NCBI GenBank assembly: GCA_017620915.1
Contig: JAFZSK010000083.1
Span: forward strand, 8,726 to 72,725
Source: Clostridia bacterium
GTDB taxonomy: Bacteria > Bacillota > Clostridia > UBA1212 > UBA1255
Direction of reading: 5' to 3'
DNA: 64,000 nt
The translations under genes and the position numbers were made by a program. Under the pieces are notes generated by a model that did not search any database, was not told the origin of the DNA, and worked only from the letters and a program-made list of their open reading frames with translations. Below, piece by piece: positions 4,724 to 49,182 of this stretch. Within the stretch, counting starts at the first letter, position 1. Each line of letters starts with the position of its first letter.

Positions 4724-5869
4724 ATGCAATTAGAATTCACTCGCGACCCGGGCAAAATGATCGAATTCGCGAAAGCAATAGTTGCAGAGAAAAGTAAATA
4801 CTATACTCCGCAAACGCTTGAGAGCATAAAAGACCAGGTCAGAATGCGCGCGGGCAAGTGCGGCGAGCAGGAAATCGATGATAAAATGTATATAACCATT
4901 TATTATTACTGGTTTTACGGCTGTGCCGTGGACGAATATTTTTATTATCGATTTTACGAAAAAACGTATGATGAAATCAAATCGTACATTACAAAAAGAG
5001 AGAAGGTCCATTATACAAACTGGCTGAACCGGATCGAAGACGCGCATTTTCTTCAGAACAAATTTGAAACGTATCAATTGTTCAAAGAAGATTTTAAGCG
5101 CGAAATGATCTACTGCGACAGCGAGGAAAACTATGGCGAGTTTTTAAGTTTTGTCAGACGGCACCCGGTTTTTGTGGTAAAAGCGCTGCAGCTGGGCGGA
5201 GGACAAGGCGTTTTTAAAGATAGTGTTATCGGGTTGACAGAGGACGAAATACTGAACAAATATCGTGAATTTCTTGCCCAGAACGACATACTTAACAGTC
5301 AACACAATTCATGGGGCGGAAAAAGCGCATTCGTAGTGGAAGAACTGATAGACGCCGGAGAAGAAATCGCAAAACTGCACCCGCAATCAGTCAATGTTGT
5401 CCGCATGCCGACCTTTAATTTGAACGGAACTATAATGGTTTTTCAACCGTGGATAAAGATCGGCCGCGGAGACAGTTTTATTGACAACGGGCATGCAGAC
5501 GGCCTGATGGCGGGAATAGATCCGGAAACAGGCATAATTGATACTCCCGGCTATTCAGAGTTTCCGGAGTCTTTTGAATACCATCCCGACACAGGTATCA
5601 AAATACCCGGATTTGCCATTCCGAACTGGAATGAGCTTGTTGAAACAGTGAAGAGACTGTCTGCCGTTTTGCCTACCATAAAATACATTTCGTGGGATAT
5701 GGCCTGGACAAAAAAAGGCTGGGCGATCATGGAAGGCAATTTTAGGGGTGCTTTTATGTGGCAATTCTTCAGACAAAAAGGCATGAAAAAAGAAATTGAA
5801 GAACTTATCGACTGGAAGCTTCCGGATGGATTCTGGTGGCAGATCAATATTTCCAGAGAGGACAATTAA
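4724..5869 (+). CDS. ATP-grasp domain protein (TupA-like / sugar-transfer-associated ATP-grasp type), paralog 1
   Basis: Shares a conserved block with the next ORF (YYWFYGC…EYF, …FVVKALQLGGGQGV, HPWIKIGRG, GWAIMEGNFRGAFMWQFF). RBS AGGTGA is 8 nt before ATG 4724; the track start at 4712 lacks an RBS. Confidence 0.6.
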   Translation: MQLEFTRDPGKMIEFAKAIVAEKSKYYTPQTLESIKDQVRMRAGKCGEQEIDDKMYITIYYYWFYGCAVDEYFYYRFYEKTYDEIKSYITKREKVHYTNWLNRIEDAHFLQNKFETYQLFKEDFKREMIYCDSEENYGEFLSFVRRHPVFVVKALQLGGGQGVFKDSVIGLTEDEILNKYREFLAQNDILNSQHNSWGGKSAFVVEELIDAGEEIAKLHPQSVNVVRMPTFNLNGTIMVFQPWIKIGRGDSFIDNGHADGLMAGIDPETGIIDTPGYSEFPESFEYHPDTGIKIPGFAIPNWNELVETVKRLSAVLPTIKYISWDMAWTKKGWAIMEGNFRGAFMWQFFRQKGMKKEIEELIDWKLPDGFWWQINISREDN

Positions 5870-5883
5870 AGGAGGCTATAATA

Positions 5884-7065
5884 ATGTTTAAGGACTGGCT
5901 GAAAATCACTGAAGATCCGGCAGAAATCAAAGAGATGGCGAAACGAATCGTATCAGAGGCAACGATATACACCGGAGGTATTATTAAAAAATTCTATACG
6001 CCCTTGATGATAAGCAAACTGGATGCCTCGATAATGGAGTACGCCCCGGCAACGACTGAGCAGGAAAAAGAAGAACTGCGGCTGCGGTTTATTTACGACT
6101 ACTGGGTTTATGGGTGCACGGTGGAGGAGGAATTCTATCTGCATCTGAAAGATAAAAACGATGCCGAAAAAAGAGAGTATCTGATCGGTCAGATGCGCAG
6201 TATTTATGCACGGCATTTAAATCAGAACGCAGGTCCGGAATGGGTCGAGAAAATGCAGGATAAATACCGGCTGTATCAGTTGCTTCGTCCGTATTATAAA
6301 CGTGATGTGATCGAGATCCGGAGCATGGACGATTTTGATATTTTTGCGGATTTCGTCAGAAAGCATAAAGAATTTGTAGTAAAGCCCTCGAACTTCTGCT
6401 TTGGTATCGGCGTTCACAAAGTATCTATGGATGATTACGGAAATGACTGTAAAAACGCGATGCAGTCAATTCTCAGCGAAGGCGACGCCATTCATGAGAA
6501 GCATCCTACTCGAATGTCGAAAATGGTACTTGAAGAGATCATTCCCCAGGACGAAGCACTCTCTGTACTCCATCCGCATTCTGTAAATGCCATTCGTGCT
6601 ACTGCCGTCAGAGGAAAAGACGGGAGAATTCACATCTATCATCCGTGGATCAAGGTCGGACTGGGCGGTGCTTTTGTGGCTTCGGCGGCGCTAACGGGCT
6701 TTGACGCAGAGATCGATCCCGATACCGGTATCGTAATTACAGACGGGTATCAGGAAAACGGCAGTGTATACAAAGTGCATCCGGATTCCGGCATCCAGAT
6801 CAAGGGTTTCCAAATCCCCAAGTGGGATGAACTGATTCAGTTCGTAAACGAAATAATGGACGCACTGCCCGAATACGGATATGTGGGTTGGGATCTGGTC
6901 CTTACCCCCGATGGCTGGTGCGTTATGGAAGGCAATCATACCGGCCAATTCGTATTTCAGATGATTAACGGAAGAGGCTATAAGAAAGATTTTGAAGATC
7001 TGATAGGCTGGAAATACGATAAGGATTTCTGGTGGCAGGACAACGGGAAATTTATGCACAATTGA
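5884..7065 (+). CDS. ATP-grasp domain protein, paralog 2
   Basis: Paralogous to 4724-5869 (YDYWVYGC…, FVVKPSNFCFGIGV, HPWIKVGLGG, GWCVMEGNHTGQFVFQ). Strong RBS AAGGAGG is 9 nt before ATG 5884. Confidence 0.6.
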   Translation: MFKDWLKITEDPAEIKEMAKRIVSEATIYTGGIIKKFYTPLMISKLDASIMEYAPATTEQEKEELRLRFIYDYWVYGCTVEEEFYLHLKDKNDAEKREYLIGQMRSIYARHLNQNAGPEWVEKMQDKYRLYQLLRPYYKRDVIEIRSMDDFDIFADFVRKHKEFVVKPSNFCFGIGVHKVSMDDYGNDCKNAMQSILSEGDAIHEKHPTRMSKMVLEEIIPQDEALSVLHPHSVNAIRATAVRGKDGRIHIYHPWIKVGLGGAFVASAALTGFDAEIDPDTGIVITDGYQENGSVYKVHPDSGIQIKGFQIPKWDELIQFVNEIMDALPEYGYVGWDLVLTPDGWCVMEGNHTGQFVFQMINGRGYKKDFEDLIGWKYDKDFWWQDNGKFMHN

Positions 7066-43509: not shown

Positions 43510-45720
43510 ATGAAAAAAATCGGATTATTATTACTTTGTGTTGTACTCTTTTTGACTTCGTCGTGTGGAACGGCGGGATCAAAAAAGAAAAACGATCTTT
43601 TGAACAAAACAAAATTAGGAAATACGATTCCGGTCCCTCCTGGCAATATTAATATCGAATGTGACTTAGACAACTATTTATCCGTATCCGCCAAAAACAC
43701 GTCATTGGGAGATTACAACAATTATCTAAATGAATGTATTAAACGTGGATATACTGTTGAAGCTGACAATACATCGTCATATTATTCTGCATACAACAGC
43801 CAAGGTAATAAATTGCTTCTTTCGTTTTATGAATCCCTTGAAGAAATGGTTGTTGCAGTATATGCTCCGATGGAAATGGAAACGCTCAGATGGCCCAAAA
43901 GCAAAGTCGGCCAAATGGTTCCTAAACCGGATTCAGAGATTGGTAAAAATGTCAGAGATTCGTCAGATTCCTTCTATTTGTATGTAGGTGACACGGATAT
44001 CGACGAATTAAATAATTACATTGACAAATGTATGGATGCCGGCTTTGTCATCGATTATAATAGAACAAAAGAAAGATTTGTTGGTAAAAACGAAGAAGGA
44101 TATCAATTGACTCTTAGATATGAAGGGTTTGAGATCATTACAGTCAAATTGGATTCGCCCAATAAAAGTGTTCCCACTGATGCTCCGGTAACCGATGAGC
44201 CGTTGATCACAACTCCCGTTGAACAAGAGACGATCGTTCCGGTACCCACATTACAGCCAACGGAGACAAATACAGACCCCAATACAGTAACACCTACCAA
44301 AGAACCGTCAACGACTGTGACAAACCGCCCGACAGCAACTCCGACAAACCAGCCGACTGCAACTCCAACAAACCGCCCGACGGCAACGCCGACCAAACGT
44401 CCAACGGCTACCCCGACAAACCGGCCAACGCCAACGCCGACCAAGCGGCCAACGGCGACACCCACGAACCGGCCTACTGCAACACCTTCCAGTGGCGGGT
44501 TTAATACAAATAATACGATCACAAAAACGGTCAATTATGACGATAAGGGCGTCAAGATTACTTTCAACGAAATACAATACAGCAGCACATACTGTACGTT
44601 TTCGTTCACTATTGAAAACAACAGCGGTAAAGATTTGGAGTTTTACTCCAAGGATCTTAACTCAATCAACGGATATATGTTTAATATAGGCTGGTATTCT
44701 AAAACAGTTACAAATGGGAAAAAGGCTATAGAGAAGAGTACTATATATTACAAGGAACTGATGTCTTACGGGATAAATGAAATTGCGGATATGGCGTTTA
44801 TTTTTAAGGTTACCGATGATGACGATTGGCAAAATTACTTTTATACCTCTCCGATAATCGTTGAAACATCCTCGAAGAAAACACATGATTATTCCGTCGA
44901 TTATTATCAAAAAGCCATGAAAGACAAGACATATGAGAAATATTCCGGTAAAGATATAGGGTATTTCTCTAACAAGGCGGTGTTAGAACGAAATGGAATC
45001 AAACTTTCTTCATACAGTTTAATTAATAGCGGAACATACAAGTATTTATATTTGGAATTCACCAATAATTCCGATGTTCCGGTCACGATAGGCTATCGGG
45101 ATATTGCCATTGATTCTTTGGTTGCAAGTAATGGACTATGGTCAACTGCGACAATTCTGCCGCATAAAACGATGGTTGATGTTATTACCGTTTCAAGTTT
45201 AATAGATGAGGGGTTAATTGATTTGTTGAAAATCAATGAAATATCAACTATAGGAATGTTGCTGGATGTAGATCACGAAGATGAATCGGATTTCTTTGAA
45301 GAAAGGATATCGATTCCGGTTTCAAACAACCCGTCTACGATTGATTTGTCCGGTAAAACAGTATATGACGATAACGGGGTAAAAGTAGTATTCAAAGGTA
45401 TGGCGCTATCCGGTTATAGCAAGAAAGATCTTGATATCTACTTTTTAGTTACTAATAACAGCGGAAGAAAAATTAGAATCGATACAGGCTATAATGATTC
45501 CTCTATAAATGGTTATATGCAGTCGTTGGGATTATGGTCAACGTATGTTGATAACAATCAAACTGTTATTTGGGATGGAAGAGTCTATAGCAGTTCTCTC
45601 GAAGACCTCAATATCAGTAATCCTCTGGAGGAAATAACTGAAATAGAACTTGAAATAGAGTTGACAGATGAGCATTACCATGACATCGACAGCAGGATGG
45701 TAAAAATAAAACTACGTTAA
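43510..45720 (+). CDS. lipoprotein with Pro/Thr-rich tandem-repeat linker and repeated beta-rich domains
   Basis: Lipobox LTSSCG. Seven (TNRPTATP)-type repeats. Confidence 0.6.
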   Translation: MKKIGLLLLCVVLFLTSSCGTAGSKKKNDLLNKTKLGNTIPVPPGNINIECDLDNYLSVSAKNTSLGDYNNYLNECIKRGYTVEADNTSSYYSAYNSQGNKLLLSFYESLEEMVVAVYAPMEMETLRWPKSKVGQMVPKPDSEIGKNVRDSSDSFYLYVGDTDIDELNNYIDKCMDAGFVIDYNRTKERFVGKNEEGYQLTLRYEGFEIITVKLDSPNKSVPTDAPVTDEPLITTPVEQETIVPVPTLQPTETNTDPNTVTPTKEPSTTVTNRPTATPTNQPTATPTNRPTATPTKRPTATPTNRPTPTPTKRPTATPTNRPTATPSSGGFNTNNTITKTVNYDDKGVKITFNEIQYSSTYCTFSFTIENNSGKDLEFYSKDLNSINGYMFNIGWYSKTVTNGKKAIEKSTIYYKELMSYGINEIADMAFIFKVTDDDDWQNYFYTSPIIVETSSKKTHDYSVDYYQKAMKDKTYEKYSGKDIGYFSNKAVLERNGIKLSSYSLINSGTYKYLYLEFTNNSDVPVTIGYRDIAIDSLVASNGLWSTATILPHKTMVDVITVSSLIDEGLIDLLKINEISTIGMLLDVDHEDESDFFEERISIPVSNNPSTIDLSGKTVYDDNGVKVVFKGMALSGYSKKDLDIYFLVTNNSGRKIRIDTGYNDSSINGYMQSLGLWSTYVDNNQTVIWDGRVYSSSLEDLNISNPLEEITEIELEIELTDEHYHDIDSRMVKIKLR
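44321..44488 (+). repeat. seven tandem 24-nt coding repeats (TNRPTATP/TKRPTATP linker)
   Basis: Directly visible: acaaaccgcccgacagcaactccg repeated with minor variation. Confidence 0.8.
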
Positions 45721-45858: not shown

Positions 45859-47172
45859 ATGACAATGTTGCTTGCGTTGGCCGTCGCACTGCTGGCGGGG
45901 CTGATGATGTCGAGGTTGACGAAAATATGGAATCTGCCCGCGGTGACGGCGTATCTGGTGGCCGGCGTGCTGATCGGACCGTACGTGCTCGGCCGGCTGG
46001 GGATCCAGGGGCTCGGGTTCGTGGATGCCGCCGACGTGGGGAAATACAGCATCATTTCGGACGTGGCGCTGGGCTTTATCGCGCTGGCGATGGGCAACGA
46101 ATTCCGTATTGCCGACATCAAAAAGCTGGGCAAACAGGCTGTCGTAGTGGCGGTGTTTCAGGCGCTCACCGCAACGGTGCTGGTTGACGCCGCGCTGATC
46201 GGGCTGCATTTCCTGATGCCGGAGGCGCTGCCGTTGTCCGTAGCCGTGACGCTGGGCGCTGTCGCAGCCGCAACGGCCCCCGCCGCCACCCTGATGATCG
46301 TCAAACAGTACAAATCCCAGGGCCCCGTGACCCGCATGCTGCTGCCGGTGGTGGCGCTGGATGACGTTGTCGGCCTCATCCTGTTCGCGGTGTCGTTCGG
46401 TATTGCCCGCGCGCTGGAGCACGGCACGGTGGACATGTTCTCCGTGATCGTTGACCCGCTGCTGGAAGTGGTGGCGTCGCTGGCCCTGGGCGCGCTGCTG
46501 GGGGCAATATTCGCCTTCACCGAACGCTTCTTCCACTCCCGCTCCAAGCGTCTGAGCATCTCGGTGTGCTACGTGTTCCTGGCGGTGGCAATGTCGCAGC
46601 TCTCCTTCCGCCTCGGCCCCGTGACGCTGGGTTTTTCGTCACTGCTGGTCTGCATGGCGCTGGGCACCGTGTTCTGCAATCTCTGCGAATGGTCGTCCGA
46701 ACTGATGGACCGCCTGGATCGCTGGACGGGGCCGATAATGGTGCTGTTTTTCGTGTTGTCCGGCGCGGGCATGGAGCTGAACGTGTTTAAATCGTGGCAG
46801 GTGGTGCTGGCGGGTGTGGTGTTCATCCTGGTGCGTTCCGCGGGCAAGATCCTCGGCGCCAATTTCTCCTCCCGCATGATGAAGTGCGAACCCACGGTCC
46901 AGAAATATCTGGGCATCACGCTGCTGCCTCAGGCGGGCGTGGCGCTGGGTATGTCGATGACGGCAATGTCCCTCGGCGCCCCCGGCCTGATCATCCGCAA
47001 CATTTCGCTTTTCGCGGTCCTGATCTACGAACTGGTGGGACCGCTACTCACCAAGATCGCCCTGGACAAAGCCGGCGAGATCACCGACAAGCCCGTGCCG
47101 CCGCGTAAGCAGGCAATGCTCAACAAGAAGGGCATGGCCGCGGGCAACGACGAGGTGGACGAGGCAAAATAA
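45859..47172 (+). CDS. cation:proton antiporter (CPA/NhaP-Kef family)
   Basis: 437 aa with about 12 TM helices. The N-terminus MTMLLALAVALLAGLMMSRLTKIWNLPAVTAYLVAGVLIGPYVLG is typical of Na+/H+ exchanger family proteins. Confidence 0.8.
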   Translation: MTMLLALAVALLAGLMMSRLTKIWNLPAVTAYLVAGVLIGPYVLGRLGIQGLGFVDAADVGKYSIISDVALGFIALAMGNEFRIADIKKLGKQAVVVAVFQALTATVLVDAALIGLHFLMPEALPLSVAVTLGAVAAATAPAATLMIVKQYKSQGPVTRMLLPVVALDDVVGLILFAVSFGIARALEHGTVDMFSVIVDPLLEVVASLALGALLGAIFAFTERFFHSRSKRLSISVCYVFLAVAMSQLSFRLGPVTLGFSSLLVCMALGTVFCNLCEWSSELMDRLDRWTGPIMVLFFVLSGAGMELNVFKSWQVVLAGVVFILVRSAGKILGANFSSRMMKCEPTVQKYLGITLLPQAGVALGMSMTAMSLGAPGLIIRNISLFAVLIYELVGPLLTKIALDKAGEITDKPVPPRKQAMLNKKGMAAGNDEVDEAK

Positions 47173-47400
47173 TACGGCCGTTCGGGCGCGGCCATCCGAT
47201 CAACTCCCCGGCGGACTGCTATTCATCCTGCGCTCTGCCGGGTTTTTGTTTGCGTTGAATCGTCTTGTTTTGTCACGTCAATATGCCTAAATCATACAAG
47301 ATTTGTAAAATTTTCTTAATTTGACATTTCCCAGGAAATATGTTGACGTCATTGTGCTCTTCGGCGGATAATTGACCCGTTTCCGAAGGGAGGGCGAGAT

Positions 47401-47433
47401 ATGGAACTAGGCAAAACCGTAAATTCTAAATAA
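47401..47433 (+). CDS. 10-codon mini-ORF (MELGKTVNSK) with strong RBS, possible leader peptide
   Basis: RBS GAAGGGAGGG is 6 nt upstream. The TAA stop overlaps the first base of hairpin 1 of the downstream array. A TTGACG-18-GATAAT promoter sits at 47343-47372. Confidence 0.3.
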   Translation: MELGKTVNSK

Positions 47434-47610
47434 TAAGACAATATGGCTTGTTTGGGCGATTTTGTCTTATACATGGCGCTGTCTTTCGGGCAATTCTCAC
47501 CGGAAAAATAAGACATTTTTGCTCGTTTGCTTTTTATAGTCTTATTTTCGATGTGTTGTCATGCCAAAAAAGCAGACAATAACGCTCGTTTGAGAATGAT
47601 TGTCTTATAA
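47433..47610 (+). repeat. three tandem palindromic hairpin elements (half-site ATAAGACAAT…ATTGTCTTAT) with ~70-nt periodicity
   Basis: 47433-47470: ataagacaat…ttgtcttat. 47506-47546: aataagaca…agtcttatt. 47572-47609: cagacaat…attgtcttat. The central gctcgtttg motif is conserved. Confidence 0.7.
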
Positions 47611-47654
47611 ACGCCCGGATACGAGCTTTGAAATGAGCGCAAAGGGGAAGTCGT

Positions 47655-48326
47655 ATGGAATATAGAACGTTATTTAATGAAAGAGAAAAAGAACTTAAGA
47701 CGCTAAGAAAAAAGGTTCTTAATCGTCTTAAAAATGTGCCAAAAGGGTATGACGAGAGGGCACTGACAGCAATTGACGCAGAATTGAGAGTGATCGAAAG
47801 CTGCGGGAGGCATTGGAGCGAGTTGCCCGCGGTGGAAGTCGAAAAAGTGTATGAGAGTATTGCCGCCGAACTGCAGGAACTGGTAACACCGTTGACCGAA
47901 ACTGATCAACACTTTGCGAAACGCTGGCAGGAGGCGGAGTTCGAGCCGCTGAAGTATAGAGAAGAGGATAAAATACACGCCACAGAACGAGGTGAACTGG
48001 TAAGGTCAAAGTCTGAAGAGATAATCGCAAATCTGCTCTTTCAGAAAGGGGTGCCGTATAAGTATGAATGCCCGTTGAAAGTGTGCGGGCGAACGGTTTA
48101 TCCGGATTTTACAGTGCTGGATGTGAAAAAACGCCGGGAAGTGTACTGGGATCATTTAGGAGTTGCGGATGACCGCAATTATGCAATCAGAGCGATGTGG
48201 AAACTTCAGGCCTACAGTTTTGCCGGTCTGATCACGCAAAACCGAGTGATCATTACGGCAGAAACGCAGAGTGATCCGCTTGATTACATCGGGATCCGTC
48301 AAATCATCAATGAACTGGCGGCGTAA
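47655..48326 (+). CDS. hypothetical protein (possible restriction-endonuclease-like fold)
   Basis: 223 aa. RBS AAAGGGGAAG precedes the ATG. …VYPDFTVLD…EVYWDHLG loosely resembles a PD-(D/E)xK core; this is weak. Confidence 0.45.
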   Translation: MEYRTLFNEREKELKTLRKKVLNRLKNVPKGYDERALTAIDAELRVIESCGRHWSELPAVEVEKVYESIAAELQELVTPLTETDQHFAKRWQEAEFEPLKYREEDKIHATERGELVRSKSEEIIANLLFQKGVPYKYECPLKVCGRTVYPDFTVLDVKKRREVYWDHLGVADDRNYAIRAMWKLQAYSFAGLITQNRVIITAETQSDPLDYIGIRQIINELAA

Positions 48327-48403
48327 AGCGTCAAATAACTATAAAAACCGGCCGCGACATTGCTGCCACGGCCGTAAAACAGCGAATTGCTGAAAAGTAA
48401 CGT

Positions 48404-48559
48404 TTATTCTTTTTCAAACTCGTCTTTGGAAAGGCCGCAAACGGGGCAGACCCAATCCTCGGGCAAGTCTTCAAAGCGGGTGCCGGGCTGGATGCCGTTG
48501 TCCGGATCGCCCAGTTCGGGATCGTATTCGTAACCGCAGGGGCAGACGTATTTATCCAT
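48404..48559 (-). CDS. rubredoxin
   Basis: [14 protein letters not shown]…WVCPVCGL carries two CxxCG knuckles across 52 aa. The track ORF is extended upstream in-frame without support. Confidence 0.85.
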
Positions 48560-48656
48560 GTTGATCTCCTTAAAAAAGCAGGTGCGCAGGCCGCTGGCCG
48601 TTGACTCCGGCGCTGCACACCGTTGATTCAATTGGCAGTATGAGTCGCTGTCAAAA

Positions 48657-49182
48657 TCAGTTCGCGAAATGCGTGTGCTTGACCTGCCACTGCTTCAGCT
48701 TGATGGAGACCCACAAACTGTAGATGCCGCAGGTGATAAGAGAGAGCAGGGCCCATTTGATCCATTGACCGAAAAGGCTGCCGCCCGTGCCGTCGAATCT
48801 GAGCCGGCGGCCGTTGATCACGGTGTGCTGGGTCTCCCAGCGGTAGATACGGCAGAATGCCCAGGGGGCGTAGATGCTGAGTAATAAGGCAGAGCAGGAA
48901 GTTCACGATCGAGATGCCGATCTGCTGGCCCAGCGTGCCGTCAAAGAAGGATTCGGTGGAATTAACATTGACCGTCGGCGGCGTATTGTACGTATTGTAC
49001 GTGTTGTACGTAGGCTGCGGGTTGGGGTTGTACGCGGGCTGCGGATTGGGATTGTACGCAGGCTGCGGATTGGGGGCGGCTTCTCTGTTGACCGGAGCGG
49101 GTTCGGTGAGACGGGCGCCGCAGTTCATGCAGAATACCGAGTTGTCAGCACTGGAAGCGCCGCAGTTGGGACAAGTTTTCAT
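48657..49182 (-). pseudogene. zinc-ribbon / DUF-type membrane protein gene interrupted by a frameshift at a G5/C5 homopolymer (~48866-48870)
   Basis: N-terminus: MKTCPNCG…CMNCG zinc ribbon plus NPQPAY repeats. After the homopolymer the frame from the start decays into non-protein-like sequence. The frame shifted by one base, which is open upstream only to a TGA at ~48906, reads [53 protein letters not shown]… to a stop at 48657. Confidence 0.5.

Follow-up and report, generated by a model that had tools for sequence, protein, structure and literature searches.

Phased palindromic arrays upstream of a predicted PD-(D/E)XK nuclease gene in a Clostridia bacterium and in related loci

We analyzed 64,000 nucleotides of contig JAFZSK010000083.1 (the window) from the metagenome-assembled genome (MAG) of a Clostridia bacterium, concentrating on the leader of a predicted nuclease gene of 223 aa (47655..48326, plus strand). 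The leader is the stretch between a Na+/H+ exchanger gene (45859-47172) and the open reading frame (ORF) at 47655. A preliminary description had listed a promoter, a mini-ORF and three tandem palindromic hairpins in this leader, and had offered two readings of them, leader-peptide-coupled attenuation and a triple operator for a dimeric regulator. The promoter is present as described, a sigma-70-type sequence on the plus strand (47343..47372) made up of TTGACG (47343-47348), an 18-nt spacer and GATAAT (47367-47372). It fits the consensus at 10 of 12 positions, the promoter scan by itself being not significant (3 matches in the region against 1.7 expected). The palindrome ATTTCCCAGGAAAT (47326..47339, no strand assigned), read from the sequence, adjoins the -35 hexamer. 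Promoter and palindrome are both kept at the diverged related loci L001, L002/L003, L087 and L171 and at the near-identical L173 and L174, a conservation that spans relatives with proteins 55-88% identical; the palindrome motif TTTCCnnGGAAATATGTtGAC is retained at the same loci. The palindrome is probably a separate operator for some regulator. In the form ATTTCCnnGGAAAT it was seen next to the -35 hexamer in the window (47326-47339), L001 (5687), L002 (5750), L087 (811) and L171 (~690), the last of which has two overlapping copies.

Downstream of the promoter, the mini-ORF MELGKTVNSK occupies 47401..47433 on the plus strand, stop codon included. It has the ribosome-binding site (RBS) GAAGGGAGGG in front, and its Shine-Dalgarno sequence reads GGGAGGG. 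The stop codon had been said to abut the first palindromic element; the two do adjoin, but they actually overlap by one base, the last A of the first stop being common with half-site 1, and another in-frame TAA lies inside that half-site. Element 1 (47433..47470) has the half-sites ATAAGACAAT and TTTGTCTTAT and a centre of 18 bp. Element 2 (47508..47545) has the half-sites ATAAGACATT and ATAGTCTTAT, element 3 (47571..47608) has AGCAGACAAT and ATTGTCTTAT, and the centre GCTCGTTTG is common to both, as the preliminary description had held. No strand is assigned to the single elements; the entire three-element array (47433..47608) is placed on the minus strand, on which its asymmetric centre motif (CAAACGAGC) reads. 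The gene itself is preceded by the Shine-Dalgarno sequence AAGGGG (47642..47647, plus strand), read from the sequence.

The array is less regular than it had appeared. Three like elements are there, but instead of recurring every ~70 nt they have start-to-start spacings of 75 nt (element 1 to 2, ~7 helical turns) and 63 nt (element 2 to 3, 6 turns). Each element has inverted arms of ~10 bp about an 18-bp centre, but of the six arms only the left one of element 1 and the right one of element 3 are the exact 10-mers ATAAGACAAT and ATTGTCTTAT; two further arms are one mismatch off, making four of six within one mismatch, and the left arm of element 3 is not among them. The elements are mutually only 63-71% alike. 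In L173 and L174 the left half-site of element 2 is a perfect ATAAGACAAT. The pattern AGAC-N24-GTCT occurs three times in the 64 kb, always in the leader (0.45 expected; none of 100 shuffles reached three). One additional exact half-site 10-mer elsewhere in the window is at chance level, and no dispersed copies beyond chance were found in the window outside 47433-47608. We also noted a motif, TCAAAyGAGCG, in palindrome centres and in spacers of the GKLRIK clade of the protein family, which includes the window; it lies at 47581-47592 (minus strand) and 47631-47640 in the window, at 560-575 in L171, and in the array units of L002, where copies are ~54 and 30 bp apart.

The start codon at 47655 is backed by homologues that start MEYRTLF, and the product corresponds to MBO5077393.1. 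A word index returned 597 homologues, nearly all of ~264 aa, from Clostridia, Lachnospiraceae, Butyrivibrio, Treponema and Fibrobacter of gut and rumen, and a profile search of 1.84 billion cluster representatives gave 3,539 clusters (50% identity) at E<=1e-30. Pfam and NCBIfam yielded no family for the entire protein or for its N-terminal 96 residues, Pfam gave no Y1_Tnp match, PHROGs returned only a weak "endonuclease" match, and a PDB sequence search found no match. PADLOC matched the protein to PDC-S68 (E about 1e-29), and the nuclease domain also matches PDC-S69, both being candidate defence proteins. The AlphaFold (AF2) model of a full-length relative, P0001, had a predicted local distance difference test (pLDDT) score of 92.9. 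In it, helices 2-25 and 60-97 form an N-terminal hairpin that carries a three-stranded β-sheet (residues 32-58) at its tip, and a C-terminal α/β domain follows. The structural best match is TnsA, with the EDxHD/Vsr-like homing endonuclease I-Bth0305I also near, and Foldseek matches included Bax1, R2 endonuclease and cap-snatching endonucleases. The model thus predicts a restriction-endonuclease-like α/β core with a PD-(D/E)XK nuclease fold of the TnsA/Vsr-like branch, in line with the earlier suggestion that the protein is possibly nuclease-fold. Among 108 sequences, E163 (SKSE), D193 (PDF) and E245 are invariant, and E208 and H209 (WEH) are kept in at least 90%; the window copy has WDH in place of WEH, and the canonical ExK lysine is not present in the predicted nuclease.

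The window protein is a deletion variant of this ~265-aa family. In comparison with L173 and L174, whose leaders are >98% identical to that of the window, 126 bp have been lost in frame between AAAGG direct repeats (junction at 47743..47747, plus strand), in a recent event. The deletion takes out 42 residues that are exactly the β-sheet module and the beginning of the long helix. This module is present in all ~265-aa homologues; we suspect that it contacts DNA, and it may resemble AP2/integrase arm-binding domains. The truncated window protein is still predicted to fold (pLDDT 93). In the absence of the module, the three sites in the window may be orphaned in their host genome.

Arrays of this kind were found throughout the family. 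Our sample comprised 164 loci from species genomes and metagenomes, of which 138 had sufficient upstream DNA, and a TRF-detectable array of 2-9 units lay upstream in 70 of these 138. By a wider definition, an array or at least three like palindromic elements lay within 700-900 nt upstream in 73 of 120 homologous loci; the control regions gave 8 of 136 (downstream 700 nt) and 2 of 106 (far-upstream, -1700 to -1000). Examples are the arrays of L027 (period 63 nt, 7.7 copies, 92% identity), L073 (62 nt, 5.1 copies, 93%), L031 (62 nt, 4.2 copies, 92%) and L002 (84 nt, 5.2 copies, 92%). In most arrays with findable arms, the unit consists of inverted ~10-bp half-sites with centres ~28 bp apart, an A-rich, asymmetric unit centre that often contains TCAAA or CAAAT, and a variable, often GC-rich spacer that sets the period. 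Units in one array are 77-95% alike. Half-site cores are retained even where the proteins have no more than 42-76% identity and the periods and spacers have changed, and the cores follow the protein clades: GATGCTTT goes with the G(I/L)IH(V/I)V clade, TTACGG (periods 74, 94 and 95) with the LRISRSNG clade, and GACA(A/G) with the GKLRIK clade. Paralogues in the same genome bear unrelated arrays. No conserved partner gene was found next to the family loci, where only syntenic housekeeping genes recur, and because no other adjoining gene is conserved, array and gene constitute a solitary module. From these comparisons, the window array is probably a short, degenerate, inverted copy of the family-wide cis-linked array.

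Several further observations were made on the arrays. In L027 (~2150-2190), L026, L072, L065 and L031, the terminator hairpin of the upstream gene bears the half-site of the following array, for example CGATGCCCC...GGGGCATCG ahead of CCGATGT/ACATCGG units; either the first unit doubles as terminator or the arrays arose from a terminator. L010 (5242-5463), L030 (4443-5484) and L110 (4526-4937) have a second array 1.5-2.5 kb downstream that shares the half-sites of the first and has no family gene beside it. The gene is flanked by inverted arrays in L016 (1968-2296 and 3706-4159) and L074 (968-1344 and 3669-4055), and by arrays in direct orientation in L095 (1508-2127 and 3278-3579). The 84-bp x 5.2 array of L002 (5012-5458) was called as a 148-aa gene by a public gene caller, and this ORF is very likely spurious. 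A run of N within element 2 on the L173 scaffold (~990-1000) suggests that assemblers struggle with such repeats and that arrays may be under-represented or collapsed in MAGs. CRISPR-like and TIGR-like readings were rejected; the inter-site segments repeat with the unit, and family loci have no conserved Cas-type neighbours. A full-text search of the literature found such arrays described nowhere, which is not proof of their absence.

The periods of the arrays are quantised. In 53 unique arrays the periods fell at 44, 52-55, 62-64, 73-74, 84, 94-95 and 104-108, that is, 4 to 10 x 10.5 bp, with a Rayleigh R of 0.83 at 10.5 bp and a phase near 0 (nominal p~1e-16). Removal of the 62-64 class left n = 21 and a nominal p~6e-7, and in a permutation test corrected for the period scan none of 2000 permutations reached the observed value (p<1/2000). 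The same rule was obtained from arrays with unequal spacings and unrelated spacers (n = 55, R = 0.84 at 10.5 bp, nominal p~1e-17), such as L058 (74, 54, 64, 74), L046 (62, 93, 94), L053 (64, 94, 63), L161 (74, 84, 74), L171 (84, 95, 84) and L001 (63, 73), so duplication of a single unit does not account for the phasing. The AA/TT 10.5-bp harmonic was significant in 20 of 44 arrays and was the top harmonic in 15; such phasing is a signature of intrinsically curved or wrapped DNA. We regard the arrays as a probable variant of phased binding-site arrays, of which the window copy is a decayed example.

A comparison with L001 bears on whether the elements act as DNA or as RNA. L001 is syntenic with the window, its protein is 88% identical over aligned columns, and the two loci are collinear in flanks, promoter, RBS and ATGGAAC. 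The L001 array (5805-5980) aligns only to the reverse complement of the window, with the three elements and their CAAAC.AG centres in register and with the order of the spacings (63/75 in the window, 63/73 in L001) reversed by the inversion. It is the window array that is inverted relative to the commoner family orientation as well as to L001. Alignment between the two is confined to the half-sites and the centre motif and does not extend to the spacers, and the situation in L171 is similar. The outermost half-sites of the array are inverted repeats of each other, and inversion between them is conceivable. The position relative to the promoter also varies: in the window and L001 the promoter precedes the array and the start codon follows it, and in L002/L003, L087 and L171 the conserved promoter motif is downstream of the array, the array being 90-330 bp upstream of the promoter in L171 and L002.

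Features expected of structured RNA were scarce. The plus strand of the leader gave a fold z of -0.99, with 34 of 200 shuffles folding equally well or better, so that the folding check proposed in the preliminary description showed a leader no better than shuffled sequence; the predicted stems are 7-10 bp around ~18 nt with few internal pairs. Mismatches between arms, counted on the gene strand, were G:T in 133 cases, A:C in 170 and other in 341, with no G:U-type tolerance. No intrinsic terminator was found on the plus strand at 47000-48700 of the window, and none in the arrays of L027, L036 and L043. Rfam was searched permissively with the region and at the gathering threshold with 14 array-bearing loci, and neither search gave a relevant match; the best was RT-17 (E = 7.3) and the others were tRNAs. 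Such freedom of orientation and of promoter side, combined with dimensions counted in helical turns, is what marks an element of double-stranded DNA; hence the elements are probably double-stranded DNA sites and not RNA hairpins. The mini-ORF is probably an incidental by-product specific to the lineage of the window and L001. At the equivalent place L001 has a 15-codon ORF with RBS and ATGGAAC that encodes an unrelated peptide (MEHIKKHQNIVITER versus MELGKTVNSK), and the mini-ORF is not present in the leaders of L171, L002 and L087. Its stop codons would simply be the TAA of the ATAAGAC half-site. It may be translated, and we saw no sign in the compared leaders that supports a regulatory role.

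We propose that the arrays are phased, double-stranded docking sites, linked in cis to the adjoining nuclease, on which the nuclease forms a cooperative, wrapped complex, and we think this slightly likelier to be right than wrong. The simplest reading would be that the encoded nuclease recognizes its own array as a dimer. We name the nuclease as the candidate binder because the array is linked to its gene, the half-site cores track the protein clades, paralogues have unrelated arrays, and no other gene is linked. Whole-turn spacing, together with the frequent A-tract phasing, would place all the sites on one side of a curved duplex. Nuclease dimers would dock on the half-sites and touch along one face of the helix, yielding a cooperative, wrapped nucleoprotein complex that would keep the nuclease tethered to the locus that encodes it. 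Where the complex would sit between promoter and start codon, as in the window and L001, it would also block transcription, an autorepression by roadblock. The suggestion of a triple operator for a dimeric regulator was in this respect right in kind, since phased double-stranded sites are what we find, but transcriptional control does not appear to be the general role.

A number of points weigh against the docking-site proposal. The nuclease is a candidate binder on the ground of linkage. The arrays are phylogenetically related and not independent, so the p-values given above are inflated. About 40% of loci had no array by the criteria used, and the arrays of L049 and L057 have no clear inverted arms. 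In a crude and noisy test, half-site similarity did not follow the β-sheet segment better than it followed the remainder of the protein; the partial rank correlations were -0.04 and +0.135, respectively. The AT skew on the gene strand was positive in 43 of 57 family arrays (-0.19 in the window), and an A-rich gene strand, as expected if the arrays are often co-transcribed, would still allow for a role as RNA. The distance and side of the array relative to the promoter vary, and autoregulation is therefore unlikely to be the general function; for most clades no sigma-70 promoter turned up, scans of L027, L036 and L043 being negative.

Array and gene could also be a self-contained module of a new kind, in which the array is a scaffold or antidote and a toxic nuclease is stored inert as a stacked oligomer on a curved, phased DNA solenoid until a trigger such as phage DNA, replication stress or loss of the locus released it. 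We regard this as a tentative idea, improbable on balance but worth keeping in view. If true, it would be a DNA-based counterpart of toxin-antitoxin or defence systems, and the bacteria of gut and rumen would contain thousands of mutually orthogonal pairs of protein and site. Somewhat less probable still is the main rival, a function in recombination or mobility, whereby the arrays would be cis sites that the nuclease cuts or pairs and the whole a small selfish mobile module. Inversion, excision, homing and array turnover would be its outcomes, and the arrays would resemble the accessory sites of transposon ends or res that wrap DNA into a synapse. Such a module would agree with a nuclease domain nearest to TnsA, a transposition protein, and to the homing endonuclease I-Bth0305I, with a GC content of 37-49% amid genes of 60-65%, and with its variable slot, related genomes holding other genes between the Na+/H+ exchanger and rubredoxin genes. 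The family occurs in many genomic contexts with several copies per genome, the window and L001 have the array in opposite orientations, genes are flanked by inverted (L016, L074) or direct (L095) arrays with orphan arrays nearby, and the 77-95% likeness of units within arrays fits ongoing turnover. Nevertheless, no empty site, target-site duplication or defined ends were found among relatives with 84-88% identical exchangers, whose intergenic DNA is unalignable. In the majority of loci an array is found at just one side of the gene, and the surroundings offer no conserved partner such as a transposase or integrase. Full-length members were not found in plasmid and viral collections, and diverged relatives keep the module in the same chromosomal place, as in the 16 loci where it follows guaA and in the pair formed by the window and L001.

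The remaining explanations we consider much weaker. In a type III toxin-antitoxin (TA)-like system, RNAs processed from the array would neutralize the nuclease as ToxI does ToxN. Tandem direct repeats directly upstream of a nuclease gene are the ToxIN layout, the A-rich gene strand (43 of 57) is consistent with co-transcription, the window array lies downstream of a promoter, and the nuclease domain matches PDC-S68 and PDC-S69. This is nonetheless very improbable: units quantised in helical turns are meaningless for RNA, the arms lack G:U tolerance, there is no terminator between array and gene and no Rfam match, L001 has the array inverted and L002, L087 and L171 have it upstream of the promoter, and the fold is TnsA-like PD-(D/E)XK and not that of ToxN/AbiQ. 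Type III antitoxin repeats are ~34-49 nt, a length that the units of 53-105 nt exceed. Equally little credence is due to the view that the units are sites of an unlinked host factor or generic extragenic palindromes acting in supercoiling, termination or mRNA stability. The units are indeed palindromic and intergenic, the first one may double as the terminator hairpin of the upstream gene in several loci, and the phased A-tracts suggest an architectural role. Yet the rest of the 64 kb has no further half-sites beyond chance, and arrays are enriched directly upstream of family genes relative to control regions. Moreover, array sequences differ among clades and between paralogues of one genome, so no single host factor could read them all, and the paralogues with unrelated arrays exclude a shared one. 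Least probable of all is the leader-peptide attenuator, in which translation of the mini-ORF would control hairpin 1 and a terminator/antiterminator. The strong RBS of the mini-ORF, its stop abutting element 1, and the RBS with ATGGAAC at the equivalent position of L001 speak for it. It is contradicted by the lack of any terminator-like site on the plus strand of the leader, by a minimum free energy within one standard deviation of shuffles (z = -0.99), by a peptide that differs in sequence and length in L001, by the missing ORF in L171, L002 and L087, and by the inversion in L001, which would destroy sequence-specific RNA logic.

Other features near the exchanger locus deserve mention. Just upstream of the exchanger gene, at 43510-45720, lies a lipoprotein-like ORF of 736 aa with 35% GC against ~60% in its neighbours. 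It contains a Pro/Thr-rich 24-nt tandem repeat at 44319-44483 (a PTATPTNR-type linker), and it looks like another foreign insertion. In the exchanger-locus relatives L166-L169, a Y1_Tnp gene (IS200/IS605 or RAYT-type) lies directly upstream of the exchanger gene, and LGT and DUF4190 genes fill the slot that the nuclease module has in the window.

If the docking-site proposal holds, a large unannotated protein family (3,539 clusters) would have a cis-DNA partner that obeys whole-helical-turn spacing with phased A-tracts. The family would then offer a natural library of orthogonal nuclease/DNA-site pairs, a tractable bacterial model of how DNA is wrapped and complexes assemble cooperatively on phased sites, and possibly a new logic for restraining or deploying a nuclease in defence, addiction or recombination. 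For annotation, hairpin-rich leaders before genes of this family would be taken as DNA elements and not as riboswitch-like RNAs, and gene callers sometimes translate them.

Among known systems, the arrays of iterons, centromeres and operators (parC/ParR of plasmid R1, pSK41 ParR, P1 RepA iterons) likewise stand in cis next to the gene that codes for their binder, which in our case is presumed. As in those systems, the sites would face one side of a bent or wrapped duplex and be bound cooperatively, the array may double as an operator, and the sites are specific to a protein lineage. The units here are much longer (53-105 bp versus 10-22 bp) and in most arrays are bipartite palindromes ~28 bp across. 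The presumed binder is a predicted PD-(D/E)XK nuclease instead of a ribbon-helix-helix or winged-helix protein, and the modules are solitary and chromosomal, without a partition ATPase or replicon. The res site of Tn3/γδ resembles the window array in its three subsites of inverted half-sites, with their own spacings, just upstream of the gene of the binder (in our case a candidate), and its subsites serve both recombination and autoregulation. It differs in that our loci have no serine recombinase and no transposon context, the units number up to 9, and their spacing is far larger and quantised in helical turns. A third likeness is to the repetitive extragenic palindromic (REP) sequences and bacterial interspersed mosaic elements (BIMEs) with their REP-associated tyrosine transposases (RAYTs), together known as REPtrons, in which palindromic repeats co-vary with an adjoining nuclease-type gene and some genes are flanked by inverted repeats. 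REPs are dispersed genome-wide, whereas the arrays here are local and tandem (as judged in the 64-kb window), and the enzyme is of the PD-(D/E)XK type and not an HUH Y1 transposase; to our knowledge, helical phasing has not been reported for REPs. The type III TA systems (ToxIN, CptIN, TenpIN, AbiQ/antiQ) share tandem repeats directly upstream of a nuclease gene, but theirs are RNA-acting, shorter, followed by a terminator and neutralize an endoribonuclease of the ToxN fold, none of which holds here. As for the closest structural relatives of the nuclease, TnsA of Tn7 and I-Bth0305I, we know of no cis-linked site array for either. The present family is neither accompanied by TnsBCD nor set within an intron or intein, and it differs from them also in its N-terminal hairpin and β-sheet module, which has no Pfam match.

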